Positions 11,929 through 29,295 of a DNA stretch of 50,417 bases are shown piece after piece. The position numbers and the translations under genes are program-made. The stretch spans positions 1 to 50,417 of the forward strand of contig JAFAQT010000033.1 in NCBI GenBank assembly GCA_019246215.1, read 5' to 3'. This DNA is from Verrucomicrobiota bacterium. Lineage in GTDB: Bacteria > Verrucomicrobiota > Verrucomicrobiia > Chthoniobacterales > JAFAMB01. The notes beneath the pieces are model-generated. The model was not told the origin of the DNA. It saw only the letters and a list, made by a program, of their open reading frames with translations, and did no database searches. How positions within the stretch are numbered: position 1 is the first letter of the stretch; each line of letters starts with the position of its first letter.

Positions 11929-11930
11929 TC

Positions 11931-13159: not shown

Positions 13160-13687
13160 ATGAAAATACGCTTAGTGGTGGCCCTGGTAGGGCTGGCAAT
13201 CGGTTTTACCGCACCAGCCTTTGCACAACAGAAAGACGCGGTCGATCCACAACTAGCCGAGCAGCTTCGTGCGCTCAGTAAAAAAACTGGCGAGGCATTC
13301 AACAATAACGACGCCGCGGCCGTGGCCGCACTTTACACGGAGGACGCGATTTTAGTGCCGGACACAGGACCGGTTTACGGTCGGGCGGCCATCGAGAAAT
13401 TTTGGGCCGGCTTGTTCAAGCAATTTCATGTGAGCAACCAGGCCGACAAGGCGGCTGAGGATTCGCCTCACACGATAGGAACGGCCGGCAATGAGGCATG
13501 GAGTCACGGGCAATGGAAGGTGACGCTTCAAGGCCAAGACGGCAAACCTTTCGAACTGACGGGCAATTGGACAGAAATTTATCGTCGTGAGGGCGATACT
13601 TGGAAGAAGCGACTGGATACCTGGAACACAACCCCGGCACCTCCCGCGGCGCCGTCCCCGACAGCCACCCCCCCGAGCAACCAATAG
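13160..13687 (+). CDS. Secreted NTF2/SnoaL-like (DUF4440, SgcJ/EcaC-type) protein
   Basis: SD GGAGGAG. Signal peptide ending AFA-Q, AFNNNDAAAVAALYTEDA, GRAAIEK, IYRREGDTWK, Pro-rich tail. Confidence 0.85.
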   Translation: MKIRLVVALVGLAIGFTAPAFAQQKDAVDPQLAEQLRALSKKTGEAFNNNDAAAVAALYTEDAILVPDTGPVYGRAAIEKFWAGLFKQFHVSNQADKAAEDSPHTIGTAGNEAWSHGQWKVTLQGQDGKPFELTGNWTEIYRREGDTWKKRLDTWNTTPAPPAAPSPTATPPSNQ

Positions 13688-13767
13688 CATCCTGATCCGC
13701 GCGGTGACAGATTGGAACCCGAGGATCCGATAGCTGAAGGAGCTAAACGTTGTTTTTGGTCCATCTG

Positions 13768-13812
13768 CTATCCGAACCCCTTGTTGGCTTTTACCATGAT
13801 CATGAACCGCAT
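13768..13812 (-). pseudogene. 5' stub of a YciI/DGPF-domain gene
   Basis: SD AAGGAG followed by MRFMIMVKANKGFG*. This matches the family N-terminus MRFMxxVKAxKDSEAG, broken by indels. Confidence 0.55.
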
Positions 13813-13925
13813 CGTCGTGTCTCCTTATGGGTTCGGGTCCGGAGCCGAAGAGTTTCTGTTTGCAGATGAAATGTAATTTGAACAGAGGTATTACCTCGCT
13901 TTGCAATCCGGTTGCTGTTCGATGC

Positions 13926-15194
13926 TCAAATCGAGCGATCATCAGGAGCCGCAGTATCCTTGCTCCGCATCAACGCATTGGGAAGGAGCGGCAGCAGGAT
14001 TAGCACGATTGCCGTCGTGCCGGCATTCAGATAAACGAGGTCGGCGAATGGCCAATTGTGATCCGCAAGGTAGGAGCCGACAACGTCGGCGCCAAAAAGC
14101 GCAGCGTTGCGAATAGAGAGCATAAGAGAGTACCCAATGCCCTCACAACCCTTCGGCGTGGCCCGGGCAGCAAGATCGAGAATAGCGAGTTCGGCGAGTC
14201 CGAAAAAAAGCCCGTTCTGAGATTCGATAAATATCGCCCGGGTCCAGCTAGAATAGAACAGATAGAGTAACGTACCAGCAGCCGCGGTCGTGACTCCGAT
14301 GAATAATAGGATGCGAATAGGGACGCGCTTAATCAGTTGGCCGTAAAGGATAGCTGACAGAATCGCGAACGCTCCACTAAAGACGCCGAGATTTCCGATC
14401 GCCTGCTTGGAGAAATGCAACTCATCGGTCTGTTTGTAGAAAAGCGGCGTTGAAAATCCGGGCGAGAAGTAAAACAACGCGATGAATAGCAACGCCATCC
14501 AAAGATTTCTCGAACGGATAATGGTTTTCAACTGATGGCCCGCGTTTTGTAAAACCACGCTGCTTCGTTGCTGAGCAGCAGGCTGCTCCTTAAGGAAAAT
14601 GTACGCAATTGGGAAGATTGTTAGGGCAAAAACGGCGTTCGCTCCCGCCGCCCACATGAAGCCAGCGGTTGCCAAGAGACCGCCGAAAGGTCCCTGAACC
14701 AATGTGCAGAAATTAGACACGAACATGCGCAGGGCAGTCAGGCGGCCTGTTGCACCCATGCGTTGCCCAGCCTCAACGAGAAAAGCTCCAATAACCGTCG
14801 ACGCCATGACCATGAACAGGTTCACCGTCATTGCACCGAAAAGGAGTGCTTCGTACTTATGCGGAAGAAAACTCATGCCGATCCAGCTCATGCCGGTCAG
14901 CACCGAACTAAAAAGGAGATAGTGTCGCCGCCGCGTCCCGAAAAACGGGAACGCATCTGTCAGAATGCCGGCGAACGGCTTCAGATACCATGCCAACCCG
15001 CACCAGAAGAAGAACGCTGCCATTTGCTCGCGTGTGACCTGGACGTCATTCTTGAGGAGGAATTGCAGCGGCAGCTTTCCCAACCCCTGGGGCTGAGGAA
15101 AGGTCGAGGCAAAAATTCCAAACACGATAATCAAGCCCAGTGGAAGCAGATGGCGCTTGTCGTCTTTTGTCCCCGGGCTTGAGATTTTGCCCAT
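13926..15194 (-). CDS. MFS transporter, BT1 / folate-biopterin transporter-like
   Basis: About 12 hydrophobic segments. WYLKPFAGILTDAFPFFGTRRRHY and AARATPKGCEG are BT1-type motifs. Confidence 0.8.
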   Translation of the reverse strand: MGKISSPGTKDDKRHLLPLGLIIVFGIFASTFPQPQGLGKLPLQFLLKNDVQVTREQMAAFFFWCGLAWYLKPFAGILTDAFPFFGTRRRHYLLFSSVLTGMSWIGMSFLPHKYEALLFGAMTVNLFMVMASTVIGAFLVEAGQRMGATGRLTALRMFVSNFCTLVQGPFGGLLATAGFMWAAGANAVFALTIFPIAYIFLKEQPAAQQRSSVVLQNAGHQLKTIIRSRNLWMALLFIALFYFSPGFSTPLFYKQTDELHFSKQAIGNLGVFSGAFAILSAILYGQLIKRVPIRILLFIGVTTAAAGTLLYLFYSSWTRAIFIESQNGLFFGLAELAILDLAARATPKGCEGIGYSLMLSIRNAALFGADVVGSYLADHNWPFADLVYLNAGTTAIVLILLPLLPNALMRSKDTAAPDDRSI

Positions 15195-15441
15195 ATCGGG
15201 CTCTATCTGTATCTTGCGCTTGAACGGAATCCAAGCAGTGGATTGGGATTTGGCAGCCTTCCGCAATCAGGTGGCTTTACCCCTTGGCTTCTCCCCGAAC
15301 CACTTCGTTGTCACCGGCTGGCTGTTCCGCAAGCTTTTCGTATTGGTGCGCGGTCCTTTGCCCGGGCAGCGCAAATTCCTGTGCGCACTTGGTCGCGGCA
15401 TTCGATGCCTGGCCGATACCAGAGGTTCCGAACTTTGTCGG

Positions 15442-16005
15442 TTAGCTTTGCAGATTGGGTATTTTGTACCCGAGAATCTTCACTATCTGATTCAGTTGCT
15501 CAACCTTCAGGGGCTTCTTCAGGACCGTGACCGGACTGATCTGAAGGATTCGATCGAGGATCTTGTTATCCGGGTATCCTGTGATCACGATAACGTTCAG
15601 CTCCGAATCAATCTGCTTGGCTGTTTTATAAACCTGATCACCCGGAACGTCAGGCAATTGCAAATCCAAAAACATGAGATCGAATTTTTGCTTGCGGAGG
15701 CTTTGGATGGCCTCTTTAGCCGTGCCAACCACCACTCGACTAAAGCCGAGTCGTTTCAAAAATGTTCGAAAGAGATTCTGCAGGTCCCGATCATCATCCA
15801 CCACTAAGACGGTAGGTTGACCTTGTTTGTCTGGGCGCAGAATGTCGTGGTCCAGAGCGGATTTCTTGATCCGCCAGCGACCGCCGATTTGAATCCCGGG
15901 AATTTTTCCGCGTTGGACCAGATAATAGACAGTCGGAAGAGGAATTCGCAGGTACTCGGCCGTCTCTTTTACAGTAAGCAGATTGTGGATAGGGACTTCG
16001 CTCAC
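15442..16005 (-). CDS. Response regulator: N-terminal excisionase-like HTH (HTH_17) plus C-terminal receiver domain, paralog A
   Basis: LLTVKETAEYLRI...GKIPGIQIGGRWRI; VLVVDDD, FLDLQLPD, ITGY, KKP. GTG start. Confidence 0.88.
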   Translation of the reverse strand: MSEVPIHNLLTVKETAEYLRIPLPTVYYLVQRGKIPGIQIGGRWRIKKSALDHDILRPDKQGQPTVLVVDDDRDLQNLFRTFLKRLGFSRVVVGTAKEAIQSLRKQKFDLMFLDLQLPDVPGDQVYKTAKQIDSELNVIVITGYPDNKILDRILQISPVTVLKKPLKVEQLNQIVKILGYKIPNLQS

Positions 16006-17329: not shown

Positions 17330-18559
17330 CTATCTTCGCAGCGCAAGTATCAGCGTCGCATCCTGCCTGTTGTATTCATAACCGAAACCGAACGGCAGCG
17401 GTTTTGGCGAGCTCGTGGTATAATATTGAAGAAGATCTCGTTGGTAGAAGCTTTTGAACAGATTGATTGGTCCGGTATAAGTACCGAAGAACCGTAAAGT
17501 CCATTTTCCAGGGTTATAGTAGCGGAGTGGAATACCAGAGTCATCCTGAAGAAGCGACGCGCTAACCTGTAGCAAATAGTTGCGCGCAATATTGAAGCCG
17601 TTTTGGTGGAGCAGATAGGAGGCGGCCTTCAAAAGACTGTTTGTCGGGCCCAGGCGATTGCAAAAGCGAAGCACTGCCGAATTCCTCTTCAGTCCGTCAT
17701 CCGAAAGATCTGCGGAAAAGTAGTACAAGGCTTTGTGAACGCCCGTAGTTGGATCCAAAAATGTAACTTTCACGCCACGCACGCCTCCTTGGCCCAGGAA
17801 ACTGTAGTCCACTTTCAGGATCTCCTTTCCTGAGCGAGCAAGAAACACGAAAATAATCGGCAGTACTCCCTTGAGTTGAGAGCGCTGTGAATATTCGCGC
17901 AAATCCTGTGTTTCGAAGTAGCCGAAGTTAAGAATCGTGTTCAGTGAGTTTTCGAGGTTCTGAAGAGTATTCTGCAACAACGGCGGCGGCACGGATTGGA
18001 GTTCCGGGATTGACTCGACCGGCTCCAGACTAACCAGGACATAGGTGTCGCAATCCGGATAAAAAGTGTCTGCGTAGAGAAAGTCCGGCCCGCTGAAGAA
18101 ATAAAGGCAGGTACGGCTGAATCTTGTCACCGGCTCGAGGAACTCGGAGCGCCACGTGCGAATGTTGCTGAGTTGGAGCTGCTCAAGTTTGGAGAACGCT
18201 GCGGTCATCGCGTTGGAGTGCGCGATCCAGCGCGGGTCACTAGTGAACCTGGTCAGCGGTGATTCGGGCGAAACCGGCAACCCGGCGAGGTATCGAGCAG
18301 CGTCGGTTGCGTTGGATGGTTGTATTATTTGCGGCTGAACCGACTTTTGACCAGGGAGAGGCGAAAGTTCCTGTGTTGAAGCGGCTGGCTGCCCTGGGAT
18401 TCCGGGCGCAGACAATCGGGGCGGCGGCGCAACATTCTGGGCCTGAGCGATGGCTAATGGCATAGAATCGGTGGCTAACGCCATAGAGGCGATTAACGCG
18501 AGGCCGACCAACGTTCGCCCGACGACGCCGAGCGCTCCTGGGACCGGAGCAGTGTTCAT
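17330..18559 (-). CDS. Exported hypothetical protein
   Basis: 409-aa ORF with signal-like N-terminus, Pro/Gln linker and a globular domain (YFFSGPDFLYA, LLKAASYLLH, LQDDSGIP, PLPFGFGY). Confidence 0.75.
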   Translation of the reverse strand: MNTAPVPGALGVVGRTLVGLALIASMALATDSMPLAIAQAQNVAPPPRLSAPGIPGQPAASTQELSPLPGQKSVQPQIIQPSNATDAARYLAGLPVSPESPLTRFTSDPRWIAHSNAMTAAFSKLEQLQLSNIRTWRSEFLEPVTRFSRTCLYFFSGPDFLYADTFYPDCDTYVLVSLEPVESIPELQSVPPPLLQNTLQNLENSLNTILNFGYFETQDLREYSQRSQLKGVLPIIFVFLARSGKEILKVDYSFLGQGGVRGVKVTFLDPTTGVHKALYYFSADLSDDGLKRNSAVLRFCNRLGPTNSLLKAASYLLHQNGFNIARNYLLQVSASLLQDDSGIPLRYYNPGKWTLRFFGTYTGPINLFKSFYQRDLLQYYTTSSPKPLPFGFGYEYNRQDATLILALRR

Positions 18560-18646
18560 ACATCAGATTCTTGTTGCAATTCTGCCTACGTGTTTTCCGC
18601 CGCGTTCATCGAGAGTTCGCAGGTGTCCAAAAATAGCGATTTTTGG

Positions 18647-19726
18647 TTATTGTTTCAGGAGCAGCAGCTTGGCGAGTGGGATCAGCATTCGCTCAGGGGA
18701 AGCCGCTAGCCGGGCTGCCACATCGGCCTCTAGACGATTCACGAAGGTGATCGCACGTGAACCAGCTCGGCCGGTTGCCAGGCCGGCGGCAAGCGTCGGG
18801 AACACCGACGCACGAGAGAAGGCAGCCCATTGGGCGCCGAACCCACGGGCGTCGCCGTTATTCTCGAATTCCGCCCAGATTCGATCCTCGCTCAAGAACA
18901 CCTCCATTTGCTCAATTGAAAGACCATTGAAGCTCCCGCTATCGGCGAACGGCTCCACGAAATCCGATCGGCTCCGCCCAACAGTCGGGATGACCATCCG
19001 CCTGGCTTCCTCCGCACCGAGAAAACCCTCCTTGACCATATCGAGAAGCGCCGCGTACATGGCTTCGAGCAGCGGCCGATAGCCGAAATTGCCCGCCTCA
19101 TCGACCGCCATCGTCAGCACAACCAGCTTCCCGCCGGGGCGTAGTTCGCATCCCCGGTGGACAAGGAATGTCCGCCAGTCCTCGGCCGCCTGTCGAGCGA
19201 ACGCCGCGCGCGCGGCCGGATCTTGGCTATAGGCAATCTGCACCTGATCTGGGATCTGCGCCGGCAGCCGACTTAGCCATTGCACCGCCCAGGAGCTCCA
19301 CGCCAAGGTGACACTGCTTGAGGGAAGCAGCTGCTCGTAGAATGACCTTCCGATTGCGGACGCGAACACGGCAGAATCCCCGCGCAGGTAGCTGTTCGGG
19401 TCGACGGCCAGAGTCTGGAAGAGTGCTGTGAAATCATTGTCCGGCAGGTCGGTGTGCACGACCCAGATCGCCCGTCCCGGCCCAGCCCGCTTCCGGAGTG
19501 TACGGATGGCCACCGCCAGCGGGCCAAGCGAGTTATGCCCCTCAGAGGAGCCATAGTCGGCAACGATCACCGGCTGCGGCAGCAGCTCCAACGCGGCGGT
19601 CTTGGCCGCTTGCTCAAGTAGCGGCACCGCTGGCGACAGCCCGGCAGCCTGCACGCGCGAGCTGCGATTGTAGGCCCCGTGTCCTTCCATCGGGGCGGGA
19701 CTAACGACTGCCAGTGAGTCGGTCAT
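18647..19726 (-). CDS. SAM-dependent carboxyl methyltransferase (SABATH / Methyltransf_7 family)
   Basis: MEGHGAYNRSS..Q, VADYGSSEGHNS, TDLPDNDF, GRSFYEQLLP..SV....SSWAVQWLS, DW..FL..R..EL.PGG. Confidence 0.88.
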   Translation of the reverse strand: MTDSLAVVSPAPMEGHGAYNRSSRVQAAGLSPAVPLLEQAAKTAALELLPQPVIVADYGSSEGHNSLGPLAVAIRTLRKRAGPGRAIWVVHTDLPDNDFTALFQTLAVDPNSYLRGDSAVFASAIGRSFYEQLLPSSSVTLAWSSWAVQWLSRLPAQIPDQVQIAYSQDPAARAAFARQAAEDWRTFLVHRGCELRPGGKLVVLTMAVDEAGNFGYRPLLEAMYAALLDMVKEGFLGAEEARRMVIPTVGRSRSDFVEPFADSGSFNGLSIEQMEVFLSEDRIWAEFENNGDARGFGAQWAAFSRASVFPTLAAGLATGRAGSRAITFVNRLEADVAARLAASPERMLIPLAKLLLLKQ

Positions 19727-20509
19727 CGGTTCCGGGGATCTTCGTTCGCAGCGCTGGGAGTCTAACCAGAATGTCGCAAGCGTGGCAAGAATTTGGCGCT
19801 TTTAAAGCTTCGGACCATTGCCCTGGGCAAAACTCGAGCCAGATTCAGCGCGTGGGCTTCCGCGCATTGCTTTCCCTCTCTACATTTGTCCAAGCTACAA
19901 AATGGTGAACGAGGCCGCGATTTTTTCGGCAGCAAACACGGGAGAAAATGTCGCGCCGAAGAGATGGTTTCCGTGCCGCCCAGCGCGAGCCGGTAGACGT
20001 CGAAATCGGCGAAGTTAATCCTTGAAAACAAAGAAGGATTGAACTAGTCCAGAAGAAACTTGGCCTGCGGATTCAGATCGAACTGGGCTATTGTCGCTGC
20101 GCCTTCTTATCCTCTCTCCAAGATCACCCGCCAAGGCGCGGACCCGAAAATCGCGCGAAGTTCGGGAACCGGCTGGGGCGTGTAGATCGAGAGCCAGGCC
20201 CAAGACGGCACACCCGCATTCTGTACGGTCTTGCGATCGAAACCGCTGACATGTAAGATCGGTAAGTGCGCTATTTTAGGTTGCTGCTTTGGCTAGTCTT
20301 TTTCGCGATTGCCACGTTCTGCTGGATTGTTCTTATCGAGCATGGACCGGAAAATTTCATCGAGGGCACCAGGATCGAATGCGAGAACCTGGGTTGGCCT
20401 ACATTTCCTTTTTTCAAGTAGCCGATCGAGTATCAATCCAATCTTTGCAACATGTCAACGCGCCCGTCAGGTTTCCACCCGCACCGATAGCTCAAGAGAT
20501 CTCTGCCGT

Positions 20510-20538
20510 TTGACGCTCTATGCGCCGTCCGATATTTT
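20510..20538 (+). promoter_or_regulatory. Putative sigma70 promoter of rex
   Basis: TTGACG-17 nt-TATTTT, ending 6 nt before the GTG start. Confidence 0.5.
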
Positions 20539-20544
20539 TCATAC

Positions 20545-21165
20545 GTGGCGAAGTTTGTCATCCCTCGGAAAACAGTCTATAGGCTCTCGCTGTACTTCAG
20601 GATTGTAGAGCGACTGTTCCAGAATCGAATCGATACCGTTTCCTCGGCGGCTTTGGCAAAGGCGGCCGGGGTCAAACCGACCCAGCTTCGCAAAGATCTA
20701 ACCTATTTTGGCCAGTTCGGCACGCGAGGTCTCGGTTACAAGGTCGAATCCCTTGAGAGACAACTGGCAAGTGTGCTTCGCACAGCCCGCTTTCAACCGG
20801 TCATTCTGGTCGGCGCAGGAAACCTTGGGTCAGCCCTTATTCACTATGACGGGTTTGCGAAAGAGGGATTTGAGATTGTAGCGGCATTCGATATCCGCCC
20901 GGGGCGAGCGAAAGGCGGCCACTTGAAAATTTCAATTCTGCCGATGGACCGGCTGAAATCGTTCGTCTCCGAACACAGTGTGAAGCTTGCCATTTTGACG
21001 GTGCCCGGAACCAGCGCCCAAGTGGTGACGAATGCTCTGGTCGAAGCGGGCATCCAGGCAATACTGAATTTCTCGACTATCATCCTTCAGGTGCCGAGTA
21101 ACGTAGTTGTGAACAACGTTAACCTCGCGATCGAATTGGAAAATTTGAGTTACTTTATCACATAG
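20545..21165 (+). CDS. rex: Redox-sensing transcriptional repressor Rex
   Basis: IP..TVYRLSLY, QLRKDLTYFGQFGTRGLGY, VGAGNLG, ILNF. Confidence 0.95.
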   Translation: MAKFVIPRKTVYRLSLYFRIVERLFQNRIDTVSSAALAKAAGVKPTQLRKDLTYFGQFGTRGLGYKVESLERQLASVLRTARFQPVILVGAGNLGSALIHYDGFAKEGFEIVAAFDIRPGRAKGGHLKISILPMDRLKSFVSEHSVKLAILTVPGTSAQVVTNALVEAGIQAILNFSTIILQVPSNVVVNNVNLAIELENLSYFIT

Positions 21166-21326
21166 GGCGTTCAACGTTTCGCAGCACACTGAGCGTCCCA
21201 GAGAGGCCACATTTCCTTGACGACCCAAGTTTCATTCTGCTAACGATTCGAAGTCAACCGTAACCTCTAGTGTCTCCCGATTACGCCTGTTCCAGGGCGT
21301 TACATTCCCGCAGGAAAGGTCATCCT

Positions 21327-23216
21327 ATGAATAGATTCAGTCGTTTAACCACCGGGCAAGCTGTCGTTCGATTCATGGCTCGCCAATTCGTCGAAAGAGA
21401 CGGTCATGAAAACCGGTTCATCGATGGGATTTGGGCTATCTTTGGCCATGGAAACGTCGCAGGCCTTGGTCAGGGGATCGTGGAGTTTAGTCAGGCGGAA
21501 GGCCTGAAATTCTTTCGACCGCAACACGAGCAGGCCATGGTTCACACTGCGGCTGCGTATGCAAAGCATCGCAACCGGTTGGCCACGTTTGCCTGTACGA
21601 CATCGATCGGACCGGGCGCCGCCAACATGATTACCGGCGCAGCCGGAGCCACGGTGAACCGTGTTCCGGTTCTCCTTTTGCCAAGTGACTATTTTGCAAA
21701 TCGGGTTCCGGACCCGGTGCTGCAGCAGCTTGAACATCCACTCGAACGGGACGTGAGCGTCAATGACGCGTTCCGGTCAGTGTCACGATTTTTCGATCGA
21801 ATTTCCCGACCGGAACAGTTGCTGGCGAGTTTTCCCGAGGCGTTTCGAATTCTGACAGATCCCGCCGAAACCGGCGCGGTAACGATCTCTCTCCCAGAAG
21901 ACGTCCAGGCCGAAGCTCACGACTGGCCGATAGAGTTCTTTGAGAAAAGGATATGGCATGTCCGACGTCCAGTCCCAGAACCTGAGTTGGTTCAGGAGGC
22001 GATCGAACTGCTGAAAGCAGCGAAGCGCCCAATCATTATTTCTGGGGGCGGAACGATTTACTCCGAAGCGTCGGAAGAGTTGAGGCATTTTGCCGAAGAA
22101 TTCGGAATACCGGTCACAGAGACACAAGCGGGCAAAGGGGTGCTGAATTGGAATCACTCGATGAATGCCGGCCCGATCGGATCCAACGGCGCGACTTCGG
22201 CGAACAAACTCGCACGAGACGCCGACCTGGTTATCGCGATCGGGACGCGCTTAAGTGATTTCACCACCGCCTCGAAATCGGCGTTCCAGAATCCAACCGT
22301 CCATTTTCTCGGAGTTAACGTCGTCCCGATGGACGCCAATAAGCTTTCGGCCCGACCGATTGTGGCGGACGCGAAACGTGCGTTGGACGTTCTACGGATC
22401 GAGCTCAAAAAGGCAGGGTTTGCTGGAACTCGGATGGAGTATCGAAACGAGATTAAAAATCTTAAAGAGGAGTGGGACGCAAAAGTTACCGAATTGCGGA
22501 CACCGCAGGAAGATTCGGGATTGCTCGCGGAGTTAGCGGCGATCGGATTGGTGAATGAGACAATCGGCGGCAAAGCGACAGTTGTTTGTGCAGCCGGCGG
22601 GATGCCGGGCGAGCTCTTGCGCCTCTGGCGTCCAGAAGATCCGAAAGCTTATCACATGGAATACGGTTTTTCGTGCATGGGCTACGAAATTCCGGGAGGT
22701 GTGGGAGTCAAGTTGGCGGACCCGGATCGCGAAGTAGTCGTAATGGTGGGGGACGGCTCCTACTTGATGATGAATTCCGAAATTGTGACCGCCGTGGGCG
22801 AGGGACTGCGTTTGACGATCGTCCTGATCGATAATCATGGCTACCAATGCATCCTCGGGTTGCAACGTGCCGTCGGTGTATCCGATTTTGGCAACGAGTT
22901 GAGGTATCGTGACAGCGGAACGAAGCAGTTGACCGGTGAATACATTCCGGTCGATTTTCAGAAGCACGCCGAATCGATGGGCGCGAACTCGACAACTGCC
23001 CGGACTGCTGACGAGCTCAGGAAGGCGCTGAAGAACGCGAGGAACGCTGATCGCGTTACGGTTATAGTTGTTCCGGTGGATCCAGAAAAAAGGATGCCCG
23101 GAATGGGCACCTGGTGGGACGTCCCCGTCGCGGAAGTCAGTGGGGAGGAGAGAACCCGTAAAACCAGGGAGACCTACGAAAGGGCGACCGAAAGCCAGCG
23201 AACTGTATTCGCATGA
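21327..23216 (+). CDS. iolD: 3D-(3,5/4)-trihydroxycyclohexane-1,2-dione acylhydrolase (ThDP-dependent)
   Basis: RLTTGQA, IFGHGNVAGLG, TSIGPGAANM, PDPVLQQLE, YHMEYGFSCMGYE, GDGSYLM. SD GGAAAGG. Confidence 0.95.
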   Translation: MNRFSRLTTGQAVVRFMARQFVERDGHENRFIDGIWAIFGHGNVAGLGQGIVEFSQAEGLKFFRPQHEQAMVHTAAAYAKHRNRLATFACTTSIGPGAANMITGAAGATVNRVPVLLLPSDYFANRVPDPVLQQLEHPLERDVSVNDAFRSVSRFFDRISRPEQLLASFPEAFRILTDPAETGAVTISLPEDVQAEAHDWPIEFFEKRIWHVRRPVPEPELVQEAIELLKAAKRPIIISGGGTIYSEASEELRHFAEEFGIPVTETQAGKGVLNWNHSMNAGPIGSNGATSANKLARDADLVIAIGTRLSDFTTASKSAFQNPTVHFLGVNVVPMDANKLSARPIVADAKRALDVLRIELKKAGFAGTRMEYRNEIKNLKEEWDAKVTELRTPQEDSGLLAELAAIGLVNETIGGKATVVCAAGGMPGELLRLWRPEDPKAYHMEYGFSCMGYEIPGGVGVKLADPDREVVVMVGDGSYLMMNSEIVTAVGEGLRLTIVLIDNHGYQCILGLQRAVGVSDFGNELRYRDSGTKQLTGEYIPVDFQKHAESMGANSTTARTADELRKALKNARNADRVTVIVVPVDPEKRMPGMGTWWDVPVAEVSGEERTRKTRETYERATESQRTVFA

Positions 23217-24094
23217 AGCTAGCGACGGCACCTGTAAACTGGAATAACAACGACGTTCCGGATTATCGGGAATGGACGCCATATCCTCGGCTCATCGAAG
23301 AGATGGTAGCTGCGGGTTATTCTGCGACGGAGTGGGGTATGAACATGCCGAAAGACCCGCGGATGATGAAGGCCGATCTGCAGCGTTGCGGCTTGCAGAT
23401 GCTTGGCGGGTTTGTCGAATTGGAATTGCGCAACGGAGCACGGCAGAAAGACGAGATCAGCCGAGGCTTGGAGATTGGGCGTTTCTTCAAATCAATCGGA
23501 GGAACCTACCTGATCGGTGCGGACAGCGGAGACGAAAAGAGGCGCAGCCAAGCTGGGCATGTTAATCCCGCCGGAGGACTGACTGGCGAGCAGTGGAAGT
23601 ACCTGGCGGAGGGGCTAAATCAGTTGGGACGAGTCCTTCGAGAAGAGGGCCTCGAACTGGTGTTTCACAACCATGTCGGCACTTACGTTGAGACTGAAGC
23701 CGAAACAGCGAGGCTATTGCAGGAGACCGATCCAAGTTGCGTGGGATGGTGTCTTGATTGCGGGCACTTGGTGTACGGCGGCGGAGACACGTTTGAAATG
23801 CTCAAAGAATACGGCGAGCGGGTGAAGTATGTGCACGTCAAGGATGTGGACGGAAACGTGTTGCTCCGGTCTAAAAAAGAGAGCTGGAGTTTCGAGCAGG
23901 CATTGAAAGGTTTTGTTTTTGCTCCCTTAGGCGAAGGGATCGCGCGGGTGTCGGACGTGATCCGTGCGTTGGAAGACCATCAGTATGACGGATGGTTAGT
24001 CGTTGAGCAGGATACAACGCCTTTGAATCCTACGGAGGTCGCGAGAGAGAATCGGATCTACCTCGAAGGATTAGTGAACAAAAAGAAATCATGA
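23213..24094 (+). CDS. iolE: myo-inosose-2 dehydratase family (IolE-like TIM barrel)
   Basis: APVNWNNND, FHNHVGTYVE, LDCGH, HVKDV, PLGEG, GWLVVEQD. Lies within an iol cluster. Confidence 0.75.
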   Translation: MKLATAPVNWNNNDVPDYREWTPYPRLIEEMVAAGYSATEWGMNMPKDPRMMKADLQRCGLQMLGGFVELELRNGARQKDEISRGLEIGRFFKSIGGTYLIGADSGDEKRRSQAGHVNPAGGLTGEQWKYLAEGLNQLGRVLREEGLELVFHNHVGTYVETEAETARLLQETDPSCVGWCLDCGHLVYGGGDTFEMLKEYGERVKYVHVKDVDGNVLLRSKKESWSFEQALKGFVFAPLGEGIARVSDVIRALEDHQYDGWLVVEQDTTPLNPTEVARENRIYLEGLVNKKKS

Positions 24095-24969
24095 GTGTTA
24101 AGACGGACTACAAAGAGCTGGAGGTACTGGCTCAACGGGGTCGCTGGCTAGTGATCAGCACAGTAGCGGGCAGCGGGGCGGGACACGTCGGTGGGCCATT
24201 GTCGGCCATGGATTTAATGGTCGCGCTTTACTTTCGTGTGATGGACGTCCGGCCTCAAGAACCCCAATGGCCCGAACGGGATCGATTCATACTTTCAAAG
24301 GGGCATTCTGCGATCGGGCAGTACACAGTGATGGCGCTGCGAGGCTATCTTCCGGTCGAAGAGTTGAAGACTTTCGATAAAGGTCGGTCCCGATTGCAAG
24401 GTCATCCGGACGTCACAAAACTCCCTGGCTTGGAAACATCGACAGGATCCCTGGGCCAAGGCTTGTCTGTTGGGCTCGGATTCGCACTTGGCGGGCGTTT
24501 ACGAGGGCAGAAGTTCCACACGTTTATCTTGATCGGGGACGGCGAGCTTCAGGAAGGAATGATATGGGAAGCGTTGCACATCGCTCCCAGGTACAAGCTT
24601 GGAAACCTGACCGCGATTCTCGACTGGAACGGTCTGCAACAATTTGGTTGGCTGCTTGCTCCGGGCGAAAAGCACCGTGGCGACCGGCGCGACCCATGGG
24701 CCGGAGTCGATCTCAAAACCATCTTCGAGAAGCTGGGTTGGCGCGTTTTGGAGATCGACGGACACGATTATTCACAAATTGTTCCTGCGCTGGATGCGGC
24801 CAAAAAGTTCGGAGATTCGGACCAGCCAACGATCATCGTGGCCCACACAATCAAGGGGAAAGGTGTGCAAATCACGGAAGGAAAGTTTGAATGGCATTCC
24901 AAAGTTGCAACGAAAGAGGAATTGTACGCTGTCGCCGCAGAACTTGGCGTTGAGGAGGTGGGCGTGTGA
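24091..24969 (+). CDS. Transketolase N-terminal (ThDP-binding) subunit
   Basis: GHVGG.LS, RDRFILSKGH, LQGHP, STGSLGQG, GDGELQEG, TIKGKG. Confidence 0.92.
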   Translation: MSVKTDYKELEVLAQRGRWLVISTVAGSGAGHVGGPLSAMDLMVALYFRVMDVRPQEPQWPERDRFILSKGHSAIGQYTVMALRGYLPVEELKTFDKGRSRLQGHPDVTKLPGLETSTGSLGQGLSVGLGFALGGRLRGQKFHTFILIGDGELQEGMIWEALHIAPRYKLGNLTAILDWNGLQQFGWLLAPGEKHRGDRRDPWAGVDLKTIFEKLGWRVLEIDGHDYSQIVPALDAAKKFGDSDQPTIIVAHTIKGKGVQITEGKFEWHSKVATKEELYAVAAELGVEEVGV

Positions 24970-25901
24970 AAGCGTTACGGGACGTTTTTGGAGAAACGCT
25001 CGTTGCGCTAGGTAAGACGAACCCGAACATCCTGGTGTTAGACGCCGATCTGGCGAACTCCACTAAAGCGGACAAATTTGCCGTGGAACACCCCGACAAA
25101 TTTCTTGAGATGGGGATTGCAGAGCAGAATTTTGTCGGCGTTGCTGTGGGTTTGGCGTCGCTCGGCTTCGTTCCGTGGCTTTCTTCGTTCACGGTGTTTT
25201 TTACCCATCGGGCGGTTGACCCGATCCGAATGTTAGTTGCGCAGACTCACGCGAACGTGAAGATCGGCGCCGCGTATGCCGGTTTGCTGACGGGTCTCAC
25301 CGGTAAAACGCACCAGGACGTCGAGGACCTCGCGATCATGCGGGCAATGCCTGGGATGACGGTTCTGGCCCCGGCGGACGAATTCGAAGGGGAGGCAATG
25401 ATCCGGTGGGCCACCGAATTCGCTGGACCCGTTTACCTGCGACTAGCGCGAGACGCAAGTCCACCGGTCTTCGATTCGGACTACGCGTTTACCCCGGGCA
25501 AGACATACCATTTGCGAGAAGGATACGATCTGCTGCTGATCTCCACTGGTCCGCAGAGTGTACGTTGCGTCGAAGCGGCTGAGCGCCTCGCTGAACAGGG
25601 AATTTCAGCGGGCGTTCTTCACGTACCCTCGATCAAGCCAGTTAAAACGGAAGAAATTGTTACAGCATGTGAACCTGTGCCGATCATTTTCACGGTCGAG
25701 GAGCACAATGTCTTTGGGGGCCTGGGAGGGTTGGTGGCAGAGATTCTGGCGGAACATCTGCCGAAGTTGATGATCCGATTCGGGATCGAAGATCGCTGGG
25801 GTGAATCCGCGCCGAATGATTTTCTTTTGGACCAGTTTCAACTTTCGGGACCCCGGCTGAGTGAGAGGATTGTGAACCGTCTCCGGGTAGCAAAATCATG
25901 A
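24966..25901 (+). CDS. Transketolase C-terminal (pyrimidine-binding) subunit
   Basis: LDADLANST, MGIAEQN, G.THQ..ED, GPVYLRL, VEEHN..GGLG. Confidence 0.92.
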   Translation: MKALRDVFGETLVALGKTNPNILVLDADLANSTKADKFAVEHPDKFLEMGIAEQNFVGVAVGLASLGFVPWLSSFTVFFTHRAVDPIRMLVAQTHANVKIGAAYAGLLTGLTGKTHQDVEDLAIMRAMPGMTVLAPADEFEGEAMIRWATEFAGPVYLRLARDASPPVFDSDYAFTPGKTYHLREGYDLLLISTGPQSVRCVEAAERLAEQGISAGVLHVPSIKPVKTEEIVTACEPVPIIFTVEEHNVFGGLGGLVAEILAEHLPKLMIRFGIEDRWGESAPNDFLLDQFQLSGPRLSERIVNRLRVAKS

Positions 25902-26908
25902 GAGACAAAATCGGGGTTGCTTTGCTCGGTTTTGGGCGGATGGGCGAGACTCATCTGCGAAACCTCAGTGGGCTATCGCAAGTGAAGGTTGTGGTGGTAG
26001 CCGACCCGAGACGCGAGGCGGCGGAGCGGGGAAAGGCCATCTCCGGCGCCGAAGAAGCGTTGACTGACGTCGAAAAGGCAATAGCGCATCCCGCCGTGGA
26101 TGCTGTGGTGATTGTGACTCCAACCGACACGCATGCGCACTTGCTCGAGTTGGCCGCTCACGCCAGCAAGGCCGTCTTTAGCGAAAAACCGATCGCGCTC
26201 GATCTCGCTGAGACTGCGCGCGTGGTCAAAATCATCCAGGAACGTGGGATTCCAGTTCAGTTGGGGTTCATGCGTCGCTTCGATCCAGGGTATGCGCGCG
26301 CCAAACAGAAAATTGATGCGGGCGAGCTTGGTCGAATTGAATTGTTTCGCGCTCTCAGTCGCGACACCTATCCGCCTAGCTTGGAGTTCTTGCTGGGCAG
26401 CGGGGGAATATTTCTCGATATGGCGGTGCACGATCTGGATCTTGCGCGTTTCCTGGTCGGCGAGGTTGAGGAAGTGCAGGCCTGGGGTACGGTTTTGGTG
26501 GACGAAAAATTTTCCAAGGCCAAGGACGCCGACACGGCAGTGACGTTGCTGAGGTTTCGCAATGGGGCGTTGGGGGTGGTTGAAACATCCCGTCACTCCA
26601 ATTGGGGATATGATATTCGGACCGAAGTCGCCGGTGCTGTTGCTAAGGTCGTGGTGGAGGCTGCACAGAAAACGCCCCTTCTTTTGGCCAGGGATTTCAC
26701 TTCCACTTTCGATCATTTCGAGAATTTCCCGGACCGATTTCAAGCGGCGTATCGCTTGGAATTAGAATCGTTTTTTTCGGCACTGCTGGAAGCCAGGCAA
26801 CCTTCGCCCGGGCCACAGGACGCTCTGGAAACGCTCCGCTTGGGATTAGCAGCCGCCAAAAGCTGGCGGGAAAACCGTCCTGTAAAAACTTCCGAGGTAC
26901 AACCATGA
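25898..26908 (+). CDS. iolG: Inositol 2-dehydrogenase (Gfo/Idh/MocA family)
   Basis: GFGRMG, SEKPI, GFMRRFDP, SRD, GGIFLDMAVHDLD, GYDIRTEV, RFQAAY. Confidence 0.85.
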   Translation: MRDKIGVALLGFGRMGETHLRNLSGLSQVKVVVVADPRREAAERGKAISGAEEALTDVEKAIAHPAVDAVVIVTPTDTHAHLLELAAHASKAVFSEKPIALDLAETARVVKIIQERGIPVQLGFMRRFDPGYARAKQKIDAGELGRIELFRALSRDTYPPSLEFLLGSGGIFLDMAVHDLDLARFLVGEVEEVQAWGTVLVDEKFSKAKDADTAVTLLRFRNGALGVVETSRHSNWGYDIRTEVAGAVAKVVVEAAQKTPLLLARDFTSTFDHFENFPDRFQAAYRLELESFFSALLEARQPSPGPQDALETLRLGLAAAKSWRENRPVKTSEVQP

Positions 26909-26986
26909 AGCGACCGGCGGCTTATCTCTTTTGCGGCCGGCGCGCGAGATGCACTGCGCAAATCGGTCTGGCAAAATCCGTGGTTT

Positions 26987-27550
26987 CTATGATTCCACTC
27001 TCGCGGTGGAGTGCCCAAGGATTTTGACAGTCTGGTTTAGCTGCTCGATTTTAAGGGGTTTCTTCAGAACTGTCACAGGGCTAATCTGCAAAATCCTGTC
27101 CAGAACTTCGCTGTCTGGGTAACCGGTAATCACGATGACATTCAAGTCTGGATCGATGTGTTTAGCCGTTTTGTACACCTGATCTCCGGGTGCATCCGGT
27201 AACTGCAAGTCCAAAAACATCAAATCGAACTTTTGTTTTCGCAGGCTGCCGACGGCGTCCTTGGCGGTTCCGACGACGACTCGACTAAACCCGATTTTTT
27301 TTAGAAATGCTTTAAATAATTCTTGGAGATCAGGATCATCATCCACCACCAACACTGTTGGTTGGCCCTGTTTATCTTGCCGGAGAATATCCCGATCCAG
27401 CGAGGATTTCTTAATTCGCCACCGTCCGCCAATTTGAATCGCGGGTATCTGCCCCCTTTGAACGAGGTAGTAAACAGTGGGGAGCGGTATCCGTAAATAT
27501 TCGGCAGTTTCCTTTACGGTGAGAAGATTATGATTAGGAGTTTCACTCAC
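26987..27550 (-). CDS. Response regulator: excisionase-like HTH plus receiver domain, paralog B
   Basis: 187 aa, colinear with 15442-16005 (about 155/187 identical by manual count). Receiver D/T/K residues intact. Confidence 0.88.
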   Translation of the reverse strand: MSETPNHNLLTVKETAEYLRIPLPTVYYLVQRGQIPAIQIGGRWRIKKSSLDRDILRQDKQGQPTVLVVDDDPDLQELFKAFLKKIGFSRVVVGTAKDAVGSLRKQKFDLMFLDLQLPDAPGDQVYKTAKHIDPDLNVIVITGYPDSEVLDRILQISPVTVLKKPLKIEQLNQTVKILGHSTARVES

Positions 27551-27885
27551 AGGTGCTTTAGATAGTAAAGTTAATTACAACTGTAGGCCTGTTATGGAAA
27601 TAAGTCCAGCGTGTCAACTGCGCATTCTACAACAGGCAAGAAAGAGCCGAACCCGTATCCGGTTTCAGGCGGAGGCGTCCTCATCCAAGTTGGTGTCTGT
27701 ATCTTTTTGCGTTGCGCAATGTTATCCAGGAGTTTGTGACGTTTCTTCAAGGTCCGGCGCACGAGGTGTCTCATCTGAGAATTAGCGCAAGGGTGCGAAT
27801 TAAATGCGGAGTGTTGGGGCTGGAGATCATGAAGAATCGGCTTTCAATTTCCTGGAGGCGAGCAGATCAATAAATTATCCCAAGA

Positions 27886-29295
27886 ATGCAAACACGCACT
27901 GAAAAAGACTCTATGGGCACCATGGAGGTGCCCGCCGAAGCACTGTATGGGGCGACGACCCAGCGCGCAGTCCTAAATTTCCCGATCAGCGGATATCGGT
28001 TCGGTCGGCCATTCATTCGTGCGCTCGGACTTATCAAATGGGCCGCCGCGCAGGCGAACCGGGATCTGGAGAGACTCGACGAGGAGCGCGCCCGTCTCAT
28101 CGTTCAGGCCGCGGAGGAGGTAATTGAGGGAAGGTTGGACAGTCATTTTCCGCTCGACATCTTCCAGACCGGTTCAGGCACCAGCACGAACATGAACGCA
28201 AATGAGGTGATCTCGAACCGGGTGAGTCAAAAGCTGGGAAAACCGATCGGGCTGAAGGATCCTGTCCACCCGAACGATCATGTGAATATGGGCCAATCCA
28301 GTAACGATGTGATTCCGACCGCAATCCACATTGCTGTTGGTGAATCGGTTCGGAATGACCTCATGCCGGCTCTGGAACATCTACAGCATGGACTCGAAGC
28401 GAAAACCCAGGAGTTCTGGGACATTATTAAAATCGGTCGAACACACCTGATGGACGCCACTCCAATCCGACTTGGACAGGAATTCAGCGCATACGCCAAA
28501 CAAATCGAATATGGCAAGCTCCGAGCGGGGAACGCCATAGCTGCGGTCGAAGAGCTGGCCTTGGGCGGAACGGCGGTCGGAACTGGATTAAATTGCCATC
28601 CGGAATTTCCCGGGCGCGTAATGGGCTATCTCTGGAACAGGACTGGCGTGGCCTTTCGCGAAGCGCGCAACCATTTTGAGTCGCAGGGAGCGAAAGACGG
28701 ACTAGTGGAGGCGAGCGGCGAAATACGCGCTCTGGCAGTCAGCCTCTTCAAAATCGCCAACGATTTTCGCTGGCTGAGTAGCGGCCCTCGTTGCGGTATC
28801 GGTGAGATTCAATTGCCTGCAACGCAGCCCGGTAGCTCGATCATGCCGGGAAAGGTTAATCCGGTACTTTGTGAATCAGTGATGCAGGTTTGCGCTCAGG
28901 TGATCGGCAACGACACGGCCATTTGCTGGGGGGGAGCCAATGGGAATTTGGAATTGAACGTCATGATGCCGATGATGGCTCATAACTTTCTTGAGAACGT
29001 CCGGTTGTTATCCAATGTGGTTCGGGAGTTTCAGGACCGATGTGTGAGCGGAATCGCCGCAAATCGCGAACGGTGTAAGGAATTGGTCGAGTACAGTATG
29101 GCCATGGTCACGAGCCTAGTTCCGATGATCGGATACGATCGCGCGGCTGAAATCGCTAAGGAGAGCGCCAAGACCGGGAAAACTGTTCGCCAGATCTGCC
29201 GGGAAAAGCAGATACTCCCGGAAGCGGAGCTTAACCGGGCGTTGGATCCGGTGGAGATGACCAAACCCGGGGGGGAGGGGGCACCAGGCGGCTAA
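27886..29295 (+). CDS. fumC: Class II fumarate hydratase
   Basis: RTEKDSMG, QTGSGTSTNMN, HPNDHVN, KIGRTHLMDATP, GSSIMPGKVNP. Confidence 0.96.
   Translation: MQTRTEKDSMGTMEVPAEALYGATTQRAVLNFPISGYRFGRPFIRALGLIKWAAAQANRDLERLDEERARLIVQAAEEVIEGRLDSHFPLDIFQTGSGTSTNMNANEVISNRVSQKLGKPIGLKDPVHPNDHVNMGQSSNDVIPTAIHIAVGESVRNDLMPALEHLQHGLEAKTQEFWDIIKIGRTHLMDATPIRLGQEFSAYAKQIEYGKLRAGNAIAAVEELALGGTAVGTGLNCHPEFPGRVMGYLWNRTGVAFREARNHFESQGAKDGLVEASGEIRALAVSLFKIANDFRWLSSGPRCGIGEIQLPATQPGSSIMPGKVNPVLCESVMQVCAQVIGNDTAICWGGANGNLELNVMMPMMAHNFLENVRLLSNVVREFQDRCVSGIAANRERCKELVEYSMAMVTSLVPMIGYDRAAEIAKESAKTGKTVRQICREKQILPEAELNRALDPVEMTKPGGEGAPGG

Follow-up and report, generated by a model that had tools for sequence, protein, structure and literature searches.

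The locus raises the question of how an operon can serve the breakdown of inositol when a split transketolase stands among its upper-pathway genes and the usual lower-pathway genes are not beside it. Within the window (the whole stretch of 50,417 nucleotides that was analysed, from a soil Verrucomicrobium), iolD, iolE, tktN, tktC and iolG form a head-to-tail run, all on the + strand in the list of open reading frames (Table 1), and the gene after iolG (26987-27550) runs on the opposite strand. The overlaps of 4 nt proposed in the sequence-only reading were borne out at all four junctions, where the start codon lies on the upstream TGA (ATGA, ATGA, GTGA and ATGA, respectively). Such overlaps are frequent in operons and unremarkable alone; the feature that exceeds chance is not the overlap but the conserved linkage between the tkt and iol genes, described below. 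The absence of iolB, iolC, iolJ and iolA from the window, also claimed in that reading, was confirmed, as family searches of the whole genome gave none of them on contig C3 and Pfam annotation found none among the other large open reading frames of the window.

Table 1 Features of the split transketolase operon and the gene upstream of it
Feature	Coordinates	Strand	Supporting match
Rex-type redox-sensing repressor gene	20545..21165	+	NCBIfam NF003995, 232 bits (cut-off 126)
iolD, ThDP-dependent ring-opening hydrolase, predicted to yield 5-deoxy-D-glucuronate	21327..23216	+	TIGR04377, 898 bits (cut-off 715)
iolE-like inosose dehydratase, xylose-isomerase-like TIM barrel	23213..24094	+	PF01261
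tktN, ThDP/Mg-binding half of split transketolase	24091..24969	+	PF00456 (Transketolase_N), 169 bits; 6YAK, 236 bits
tktC, pyrimidine-binding and C-terminal half of split transketolase	24966..25901	+	PF02779 (Transket_pyr), PF02780 (Transketolase_C); 6YAJ, 261 bits
iolG, inositol 2-dehydrogenase, GFO/IDH/MocA, last operon gene	25898..26908	+	TIGR04380, 351 bits

The reading frame of iolD can be extended to 21270-23216, beginning at an in-frame GTG. The ATG at 21327, which the sequence-only reading had taken as the start, is preferable, since it has a ribosome-binding site (GGAAAGG) 8 nt upstream and the match to the IolD model starts at residue 25 of the longer frame. This is the single IolD found in the genome, the next match by tblastn being 25% identical. 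The iolE-like protein scores 228 bits with TIGR04379, below the equivalog cut-off of 290, and shares 63% identity with the IolE from a cluster in genome G046 that carries the canonical genes plus tkt; the iolG product is 4 bits short of its cut-off of 355. From these assignments, the operon is predicted to cover the oxidation, dehydration and opening of the myo-inositol ring (IolG, IolE and IolD, respectively). The Rex-type gene is separated from iolD by 161 nt, and a homologue with 78-92% identity lies upstream of the tkt module in four related loci (L012, L040, L083 and L115), which makes it a conserved neighbour and putative regulator of the operon.

Searching the rest of the genome, as suggested in the sequence-only reading, recovered iolB and no iolC. 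IolB is encoded on contig C43 (5909-6706; 336 bits, cut-off 205), whereas none of the 9 genome matches to IolC exceeds the cut-off of 300 bits. The best of them, at 170 bits on contig C354, obtains a higher score as a KDG kinase and adjoins a KDPG aldolase, and the model for the fused kinase-aldolase (NF047869) reaches at most 81 bits in the genome, compared with a cut-off of 600. With 96% completeness and 443 contigs, the genome could still contain a missed kinase. Nor did it show an aldolase in an iol context: the two class II aldolases, on C231 and C318, are near neither an iol gene nor a PfkB kinase, and a weak DUF2090-family (DeoC/LacD-like aldolase) protein (C280, 112 bits) lies beside an FGGY kinase, unlinked to iol genes or PfkB. 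The claim that iolA is absent holds for the window and not for the genome, where an IolA-type MMSDH (674 bits, cut-off 448) is found beside an Fe-alcohol dehydrogenase on C54, a contig of 2.9 kb without any iol gene. This enzyme also serves valine catabolism.

The linkage of the transketolase with inositol genes, whose conservation the sequence-only reading had proposed to test, is present in 75 of 80 related loci, in which at least one iol homologue adjoins the tkt pair. Among the 50 loci flanked by 5 kb or more of sequence on each side, 49 show it. By label, the loci come from Verrucomicrobiota, Chloroflexota, Thermaceae and Steroidobacteraceae, plus one from an Acidoferrum MAG. A single group of 80 rows (SH-aLRT 98) unites the iol-linked copies in the TktC tree, and a sister tier not linked to iol genes stands apart from it. 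In the sample from the window's order, every one of the 17 iolD genomes has an IolB above the cut-off, as have 5/5 distant tkt-iol genomes, and the gene lies inside the tkt operon in loci from close relatives and in one from Thermaceae, L011 and L045 being among these. The idea that the transketolase also takes the place of iolB is therefore not upheld, IolB being present on C43, in-operon in relatives and kept wherever it was checked (22/22 genomes). In two loci (L072 and L076) IolB is followed by a gene of the transaldolase family, which may encode a further transferase that depends on an unphosphorylated ketose, and in another (L048) a PfkB domain is in frame with IolB and adjoins its transketolase. 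A complete iolBC(J) set elsewhere combined with an unconserved linkage, the outcome that had been named as counting against the sequence-only reading, did not materialise.

The distribution of the kinase was compared with that of the transketolase among 121 genomes of the window's order, 17 of which have iolD. Among these, tkt alone occurs in 11, IolC alone in 5 and both in one, and none is without either. IolC is above the cut-off in 0/12 other sampled genomes of the window's family and in 0/5 distant tkt-iol genomes. The pattern in the order rests essentially on one family and hence represents few independent events. The predicted anti-correlation with iolC is thus seen in the split of 11 to 5 but is not absolute, as G046 and G189 have the tkt module together with a complete kinase and aldolase in one cluster (IolC-DUF2090 in one, PfkB with a DeoC/LacD aldolase in the other). 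Replacement by the transketolase is accordingly not universal, and the enzyme could have a role that coexists with the canonical route. The replicate in Chloroflexota is noisier than the window's order: IolC is above the cut-off in 0/101 genomes, and when sub-threshold kinases are counted, the 21 iolD genomes divide into 9 with tkt only, 2 with both, 7 with the kinase only and 3 with neither. A further 11 Chloroflexota genomes encode a roughly 50%-identical TktC without iolD.

The conservation of the linkage raises the question of what the transketolase acts on. In alignments with 6YAK and the human enzyme (4KXU), TktN has the GDG motif and histidines that correspond to human His37, His77, His110 and His258; these catalytic histidines and the ThDP/Mg-binding GDG...N motif are conserved throughout the clade, while Asp96 and an inserted RGDRRDPW loop in TktN are specific to it. 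In TktC, Glu53 (I-A-E-Q-N) aligns with the cofactor-activating human Glu366, and Arg5, Ser32 and Arg162 are kept at the positions of human Arg318, Ser345 and Arg474. Tyr104 occupies the position of the phosphate-binding His416 and Thr112 that of Asp424, with Leu111-Thr112 in place of the Glu-Asp pair and Lys114 gained. The Tyr is found in 80/80 related loci, and G-x-x-G-K-T-H instead of G-E-D-G-x-x-H in 79/80; the Arg, Ser, Arg and the catalytic Glu and His positions are retained across the clade. The canonical sugar-phosphate pocket (human Arg318, Ser345, His416, Asp424 and Arg474), whose residues are described as surrounding the xylulose-5-P-ThDP adduct (PMC8016368), is consequently not matched in full, and the change is clade-wide. 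Judging from these alignments, the sugar-binding pocket of the split transketolase clade is remodelled. The genome contains two paralogous tktNC copies, each within a cyclitol cluster, and a separate, full-length housekeeping transketolase on C244 (813 bits, cut-off 682). This indirectly supports the earlier view of the split enzyme as a dedicated part of the inositol module.

The second tktNC copy is at the end of contig C377. Contig C43 starts with an FAD/Fe-S D-2-hydroxyacid dehydrogenase, followed by IolB, an aldehyde dehydrogenase and IolE2. We infer the adjacency of C377 and C43 from synteny, these genes being contiguous in three related loci (L028, L034 and L087); the contig ends do not overlap. 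The aldehyde dehydrogenase scores above the cut-off for succinate-semialdehyde dehydrogenase (TIGR01780, 732 bits compared with 646) and just below that of the GabD equivalog (NF008415, 814 bits compared with 828). Among its best eight PDB matches, seven are named succinate-semialdehyde dehydrogenases (613-756 bits), and the remaining one (3EK1, 698 bits) is deposited only as an aldehyde dehydrogenase. The FAD/Fe-S dehydrogenase reaches 589 bits with the YdiJ model, which has a cut-off of 1350, and its named relative, E. coli YdiJ, is reported to show no D-malate activity (PMC9504171). Linkage of these two dehydrogenases is limited to Verrucomicrobiota and one Acidoferrum-labelled contig. In the Thermaceae locus, a tartrate-dehydrogenase equivalog (502 bits, cut-off 470) is located between iolE and tktN. 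The type B cluster also holds further TIM barrels, a GolD/DthD-family dehydrogenase and three more genes of the GFO/IDH/MocA family.

On these grounds, we predict that the specialised split transketolase takes over from kinase and aldolase in the lower part of the inositol pathway. IolB would convert the 5-deoxy-D-glucuronate supplied by IolD to 2-deoxy-5-keto-D-gluconate. Written from its keto end, the latter is CH2OH-CO-CHOH-CHOH-CH2-COO-, with the D-threo configuration at C3/C4 as in fructose and xylulose, and would therefore be a valid unphosphorylated transketolase donor. TktN/TktC would transfer the ketol unit (C1-C2) of this donor to an aldose phosphate, probably glyceraldehyde-3-P, which would give xylulose-5-P and release (3R)-3-hydroxy-4-oxobutanoate. 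The succinate-semialdehyde-type aldehyde dehydrogenase beside iolB could then form D-malate, which either the neighbouring FAD/Fe-S D-2-hydroxyacid dehydrogenase would oxidise or an enzyme of the tartrate/D-malate dehydrogenase type would decarboxylate. The whole lower route would cost no ATP. We consider on balance that the transketolase probably does cleave the product of IolB, with the C2 unit going to xylulose-5-P and the C4 unit leaving via D-malate, since 2-deoxy-5-keto-gluconate as the substrate and a C4 aldehyde-acid as the product appear to fit best. The alternative C2 donor named in the sequence-only reading, 5-deoxy-glucuronate, was rejected because it is an aldose and hence cannot be a transketolase donor.

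Compared with canonical myo-inositol catabolism of the Bacillus subtilis type, described as IolG, IolE, IolD, IolB, IolC, IolJ and IolA (PMC3176187), homologues of the first four are present, those of IolG and IolE scoring below their cut-offs, and the route to 2-deoxy-5-keto-D-gluconate would be the textbook one. Here, however, no IolC was found in the genome, a split transketolase lies between iolE and iolG, and a ketol unit and a C4 acid-aldehyde are predicted instead of DHAP and malonic semialdehyde. A close functional parallel to this chemistry is SqwGH (sulfo-TK), likened here by function and not by sequence, a two-subunit catabolic transketolase acting on an unphosphorylated 2-ketose with an anionic tail; it is reported to cleave sulfofructose and to pass the ketol to glyceraldehyde-3-P, yielding xylulose-5-P (PMC9594981). 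The proposed substrate bears a carboxylate rather than a sulfonate, and a second round of cleavage, unlike with SqwGH, could not take place, since in the C4 product no hydroxyl adjoins a ketone. The bifurcated sulfo-TK/TAL route is described as pairing transketolase with transaldolase (PMC11659671), as some of the tkt-iol clusters do. The nearest solved structure is the split transketolase of Carboxydothermus hydrogenoformans (6YAJ/6YAK; scores in Table 1), which has the same two-gene architecture and catalytic residues but retains the canonical His, the G-E-D-G-A-S-H-Q loop and the N-half Arg and does not have the inserted RGDRRDPW loop. AptAB, an apulose-4-phosphate split transketolase dedicated to D-apiose catabolism, acts on a substrate first phosphorylated by a kinase. 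By description, not by sequence, it is likewise a split transketolase recruited to catabolism; the kinase that precedes it has no linked counterpart here. The NCBIfam matches included no model for SqwGH or AptAB.

Other substrates have to be weighed against this reading. The transketolase might act on another unphosphorylated ketose, either derived from a different or modified cyclitol on which the numerous dehydrogenases (GFO/IDH/MocA) and TIM-barrel isomerases of the clusters act, or a tetrulose such as erythrulose, while inositol itself would be finished by a lower pathway that is canonical or so far unrecognised. The presence of the tkt module in G046 and G189 alongside a full set of kinase and aldolase, the DegT aminotransferase within the G189 cluster, the extra dehydrogenases and TIM barrels of the type B cluster, and sister transketolases with a similar loop that occur without any iol gene are all in line with such a role. 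We nevertheless regard it as rather unlikely: the partners linked most tightly and conserved most widely are iolD, iolE and iolG, IolD is specific for the inositol-derived dione, IolB is retained wherever it was checked, and the inositol carbon would have no outlet in the 11 iolD genomes of the window's family that lack an IolC-type kinase.

The conserved ThDP/Mg motif, catalytic histidines and activating Glu, three of the four phosphate-site residues and the kinship with the Carboxydothermus enzyme could also be those of an auxiliary transketolase of the pentose phosphate pathway, which would use ordinary phosphorylated substrates for rebalancing as inositol carbon enters as triose phosphate. 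This appears improbable, as a canonical transketolase is already present, the phosphate-binding His and the Glu-Asp pair kept by canonical enzymes (including that of Carboxydothermus) are lost, no triose phosphate would be produced without IolC and aldolase, and two paralogous copies are maintained in cyclitol clusters. Still less credible, and to our minds very improbable, is a biosynthetic use of 5-deoxy-D-glucuronate as the acceptor for building an eight-carbon keto-acid. This aldehyde is the last product that the window itself encodes, its operon having no iolB, and from its structure the 2-hydroxyl configuration is predicted to suit transketolase acceptors; yet IolB is in-operon in relatives and always kept, no downstream genes for an eight-carbon acid were seen, and the surrounding genes are of catabolic kinds (transporters, dehydrogenases, and regulators of the DeoR, LacI or RpiR type).

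Cleavage of 2-deoxy-5-keto-D-gluconate thus remains the reading we prefer. Its widest form, to which we give about an even chance, is that a complete ATP-free lower pathway of inositol exists and is widespread among soil bacteria belonging to five or more named lineages. In it, 2-deoxy-5-keto-D-gluconate would be cut by a split transketolase adapted to carboxylates, the ketol would directly join the pentose phosphate pool as xylulose-5-P, and D-malate semialdehyde would be converted to D-malate and on to oxaloacetate or pyruvate, with sister clades of the same remodelled-pocket superfamily serving other pathways for unphosphorylated acid-sugars. No description of a transketolase branch of inositol breakdown was found in the literature searched.

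As a component of phytate, phospholipids and root exudates, myo-inositol is a major source of carbon in soil and rhizosphere, and accounts of its breakdown by bacteria recognise a single textbook pathway and a variant in Thermotoga. A genome survey is reported to have defined inositol clusters by iolB, C, D and E (PMC9430895), and because of this criterion clusters without iolC would go unflagged. If the proposed route is true, abundant uncultured Chthoniobacterales and Limnocylindria-type Chloroflexota of soils would use inositol by a route that surveys and pathway predictors score as incomplete. It would also be the third dedicated catabolic use of transketolase chemistry, after apiose and sulfoquinovose, and would provide a natural transketolase for an unphosphorylated carboxylated donor, of interest for biocatalysis, as well as a physiological source of D-malate.

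The five ORFs of the operon (iolD, iolE-like, tktN, tktC and iolG) were found by ORF listing at the positions proposed in the sequence-only reading, and the 4-nt overlaps claimed between successive genes were confirmed, with the start codons sharing ATGA, ATGA, GTGA and ATGA with the preceding TGA. The iolD start of that reading, an in-frame ATG preceded by GGAAAGG 8 nt upstream, is preferable to a longer GTG ORF at 21270, which the IolD model matches from residue 25 onwards. In a family-model search, IolD scored above its equivalog cut-off (898 bits vs 715), IolG was 4 bits short of its own (351 vs 355) and IolE was below it (228 vs 290); the middle two genes matched the transketolase N-terminal half and the pyrimidine-binding/C-terminal half. 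That iolB, iolC, iolJ-type and iolA-type genes are missing from the window was borne out by the window annotation together with genome-wide family searches.

No palindrome of known type was seen by eye in the 161-nt gap between the Rex-type repressor gene and iolD, or upstream of rex, and a promoter/terminator scan of positions 20000-28000 was uninformative (4 and 10 sites vs 4.3 and 9.6 expected from shuffles). A search of sequencing runs listed no RNA run for the stretch. The class II lyase downstream of the operon was considered as a link to malate and rejected, both because the opposite-strand regulator separates it from the operon and because class II enzymes of its type use L-malate or aspartate; as fumC it reaches 596 bits against a cut-off of 665, and the aspartate ammonia-lyase subfamily fits it better (576 vs 510). 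The regulator, which directly follows iolG, belongs to a pair of paralogous 187-residue proteins in the window, each with a receiver domain behind an excisionase-type HTH, and a homologue occupies the same place in L011, one of the loci matched with TktC. In close relatives (the comparison being with L011), tktC and iolG are followed by a second IolG paralogue, IolB and a DeoR regulator, which appear to have been lost in the window, as iolG there directly abuts the regulator. Elsewhere in the window, a SAM-dependent carboxyl methyltransferase gene (PF03492, 134 bits) lies beside a 409-residue ORF without a family match, in a segment with a G+C of 0.605 vs about 0.53 in its surroundings, which may be acquired DNA.

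Coordinates of features in the window and in the contigs and loci compared with it
Feature	Contig or locus	Position	Strand	Placement
TIM-barrel gene, five-gene Liv-type ABC transporter, UPF0261 and PEP-hydrolase-like (PF09370) gene pair	window	4853-12794		
HTH-receiver regulator gene, paralogue	window	15442-16005	minus	
Carboxyl methyltransferase gene and 409-residue ORF	window	17330-19726		
Rex-type repressor gene	window			161 nt upstream of iolD
iolD, preferred start	window	21327	plus	
Interval from iolG to regulator	window	26908-26987		
HTH-receiver regulator gene	window	26987-27550	minus	downstream of operon, opposite strand
Class II lyase gene, fumarase/aspartase type	window	27886-29295		after HTH-receiver regulator
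Second iolG paralogue, iolB and DeoR regulator region	L011	8933-12655		after tktC and iolG
Joined transketolase frame and joined PfkB-IolB frame	L048 (Chloroflexota)	7101-8963, 1958-3844		
DegT/DnrJ/EryC1-family aminotransferase gene	L105 (genome G189)	14745-15983		between iolD and PfkB kinase
Tartrate-dehydrogenase-type (LeuB-family) gene	G000:C73 (source genome)	13241-14266		unlinked

Throughout the source genome (3.81 Mb in 443 contigs, 95.9% complete), no IolC was found over cut-off, and the fused kinase-aldolase model gave at most 81 bits against a cut-off of 600. The best IolC candidate, on contig C354, is better matched as a KDG kinase and was rejected as a hidden IolC because a KDPG aldolase adjoins it. 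The genome also encodes two class II aldolases and one weak DUF2090-family protein, none of them in iol or PfkB context, for which reason the latter (on C280) was not retained as a hidden IolJ; an MMSDH over cut-off is encoded on a contig of 2.9 kb that carries no iol gene. As an ordinary full-length transketolase is encoded on C244 (813 bits vs 682), the split transketolase is an extra copy.

The proposal that the transketolase also replaces iolB proved wrong: IolB is encoded on C43 (336 bits vs a cut-off of 205). This contig starts 21 nt upstream of the gene for a 975-residue FAD/Fe-S oxidoreductase, followed by IolB, a succinate-semialdehyde-type aldehyde dehydrogenase and a second IolE-like gene, and a protein-vs-genome search found only one iolB, here, and only one iolD, in the window. 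A second split pair, 78-81% identical to that of the window, lies at the very end of C377, behind which are ABC-transporter genes, three GFO/IDH/MocA dehydrogenases and an IolE-like TIM barrel. In relatives such as L028, L034 and L087, genes of the C43 type (FAD/Fe-S oxidoreductase, IolB, aldehyde dehydrogenase, IolE-like) come directly after tktC, and the end of C377 and the start of C43 resemble the two sides of this junction. Since the contig ends share no sequence overlap, we infer the join from synteny and do not take it as a physical one. In relatives, the second cluster has an iolD paralogue, which is missing from C377/C43, and the first has iolB with a DeoR regulator; the two clusters of the source genome look complementary. 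In G021, a genome of the same genus in which tktNC and iolD are each present three times (L115, L116, L117), the locus syntenic with the window (Rex to lyase) has tktN, tktC, iolG and iolB, without iolD or iolE, the modules having been shuffled between paralogous loci.

A pattern scan with TktC yielded 80 loci, the closest labelled as Verrucomicrobiota of the Chthoniobacterales/Terrimicrobiaceae group, whose neighbours were screened by tblastn with the window and C43 proteins. The tkt-iol linkage expected from the sequence-only reading is conserved: at least one iol homologue was found in 75 of the 80 loci, and in 49 of the 50 flanked by 5 kb or more on each side, the lone exception being an Actinomycetales copy of 52% identity. 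The four other loci without a homologue are contigs of 3.3-10.6 kb. By gene, iolD was found in 46 loci, iolE-like in 51, iolG (at least 45% identity required) in 53 and iolB in 33. The loci are labelled as Verrucomicrobiota (37), Chloroflexota (37), Steroidobacteraceae (2), and Thermaceae, Acidoferrum, Actinomycetales and unclassified (1 each). The TktC of the Steroidobacteraceae MAGs (L032, L033) and of the Acidoferrum MAG (L080) is 75-80% identical to Verrucomicrobiota copies, with those from Steroidobacteraceae nesting within the Verrucomicrobiota type A group of the tree, which is due either to recent transfer or to misbinned contigs. In the TktC tree (88 rows, 6 loci with matches of less than 270 residues being left out), a branch with an SH-aLRT of 98 sets 80 rows apart; 77 of these have iol neighbours and the remaining 3 lie on contigs of less than 4.5 kb. 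The copy in the window clusters with the iolD-iolE-tkt-iolG type and that on C377 with the FAD/Fe-S-dehydrogenase-linked type, which makes them old paralogues. In L048, the transketolase halves form one open frame of 620 residues, a fused form, and a PfkB and an IolB domain share a frame of 628 residues; both could be read-through of two genes in G+C-rich DNA. TktC has at least 4715 relatives at E <= 1e-80, publicly named in generic terms ('transketolase', 'transketolase C-terminal domain-containing protein').

Among 121 genomes from the window's order, 17 have iolD, all with IolB over cut-off. Twelve of the 17 have a close TktC and six have IolC at E <= 1e-60 (five of them over cut-off), giving 11 genomes with the transketolase only, 5 with IolC only, 1 with both and 0 with neither; as the 11 all belong to the window's own family, they represent few independent events. 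Five distant genomes with the tkt-iol linkage gave IolC over cut-off in 0/5 and IolB in 5/5. The picture is less clean in a second sample, taken around a Chloroflexota carrier and comprising 101 genomes, 21 of them with iolD. No IolC over cut-off was found in any of the 101; when the sub-threshold kinases at E <= 1e-50 (10 genomes, 9 with iolD) are counted, 9 genomes have the transketolase only, 2 both, 7 the kinase only and 3 neither, and 11 genomes have a TktC of about 50% identity without iolD. Two clusters provide counter-examples. In genome G046, IolE, IolG, IolG', TktN and TktC lie beside an RpiR regulator and ABC-transporter genes, in the same cluster as an IolC-DUF2090 fusion (DUF2090 453 bits), IolB, an aldehyde dehydrogenase and IolD. 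That of G189 comprises IolD, a DegT aminotransferase, a PfkB kinase (260 bits on the IolC model), IolB, a DeoC/LacD aldolase, a TIM barrel, a LacI regulator, TktN, TktC and IolG. Judging from these gene sets, the transketolase is predicted to act alongside the canonical route in G046 and G189, not to substitute for it. The aminotransferase of the G189 cluster may point to an amino-cyclitol or an amino sugar as the substrate of its lineage.

The closest solved structures are the split transketolase of Carboxydothermus hydrogenoformans and, second, the human enzyme. By alignment with the latter (4KXU), Arg5, Ser32, Glu53 and Arg162 of TktC correspond to Arg318, Ser345, Glu366 and Arg474, with Tyr104 at the position of His416, Leu111-Thr112 at Glu423-Asp424 and Lys114 at Pro426. 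Human Arg318, Ser345, Glu366, His416, Asp424, Gln428 and Arg474 we take to serve in phosphate binding and in hydrogen bonding to the C4 hydroxyl. According to PMC8016368, these residues are among those surrounding the xylulose-5-P-ThDP adduct. The tyrosine is present in 80/80 loci and G-x-x-G-K-T-H in 79/80, whereas the Carboxydothermus enzyme retains the canonical His and G-E-D-G-A-S-H-Q. TktN retains the ThDP/Mg motif and the histidines, and in it an invariant Asp takes the place of the Arg of the human and Carboxydothermus enzymes (human residue 101 by alignment count, Arg100 in PMC8016368). Its inserted loop with R-G-D-R-R-D-P-W is missing from the sister tier of transketolases without iol genes. 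Copies of the sister tier read ...G-K-T-H-L-I or ...G-M-S-H-I-I. In two Chloroflexota loci (L109, L110), such sister transketolases are flanked by a UPF0261/PF09370 pair like that of the window, together with a ComB-like phosphatase, a PPDK-like protein and a C_GCAxxG protein; the UPF0261/PF09370 set may belong to an uncharacterised pathway using the sister clade.

In the textbook pathway, as outlined in PMC3176187, IolC phosphorylates 2-deoxy-5-keto-D-gluconate at C6 and IolJ splits the product into DHAP and malonic semialdehyde. Because of the structure of D-glucuronate, the keto-acid, when viewed from the keto group, presents a free CH2OH and shares its C3/C4 configuration with fructose and xylulose, and would thereby match exactly what a transketolase requires of its donor; phosphorylation by IolC would block this CH2OH end. 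A C2-C3 cut would yield OHC-CH(OH)-CH2-COO-, its hydroxyl being in D configuration, and oxidation of the aldehyde would give D-malate. Several gene contexts fit such a route: the SSADH-family aldehyde dehydrogenase adjoins iolB, an FAD-type D-2-hydroxyacid dehydrogenase adjoins tktC in 17 loci, and in the Thermaceae locus iolE and tktN are separated by a tartrate-dehydrogenase equivalog. Transaldolase-family genes right after iolB in two Chloroflexota loci fit the proposed cleavage. The source genome has an unlinked tartrate-dehydrogenase-type gene on C73 (TIGR02089, 559 bits vs 470); this family includes decarboxylating D-malate dehydrogenases, and the enzyme is a possible outlet for D-malate. 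PMC9504171 and PMC10034468 describe D-malate oxidation by some FAD-dependent D-2-hydroxyglutarate dehydrogenases, and the former reports none by E. coli YdiJ. A precedent for the cleavage is SqwGH, a split transketolase that, according to PMC9594981, cleaves an unphosphorylated anionic ketose onto glyceraldehyde-3-P.

The likeness to the sulfo-TK pathway is one of predicted function. No description of a transketolase in inositol catabolism was found in the literature searched, the coverage of which leaves out most subscription journals, and a 2026 paper on ten split transketolases does not mention inositol. On comparative genomics, the core of the earlier interpretation, a predicted transketolase-dependent inositol route, stands and the replacement of iolB falls. 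The route would be the same as the textbook pathway down to IolB and is predicted to differ in its ending; the transketolase ending, well supported by comparative genomics, would be a new variation on the known inositol pathway.
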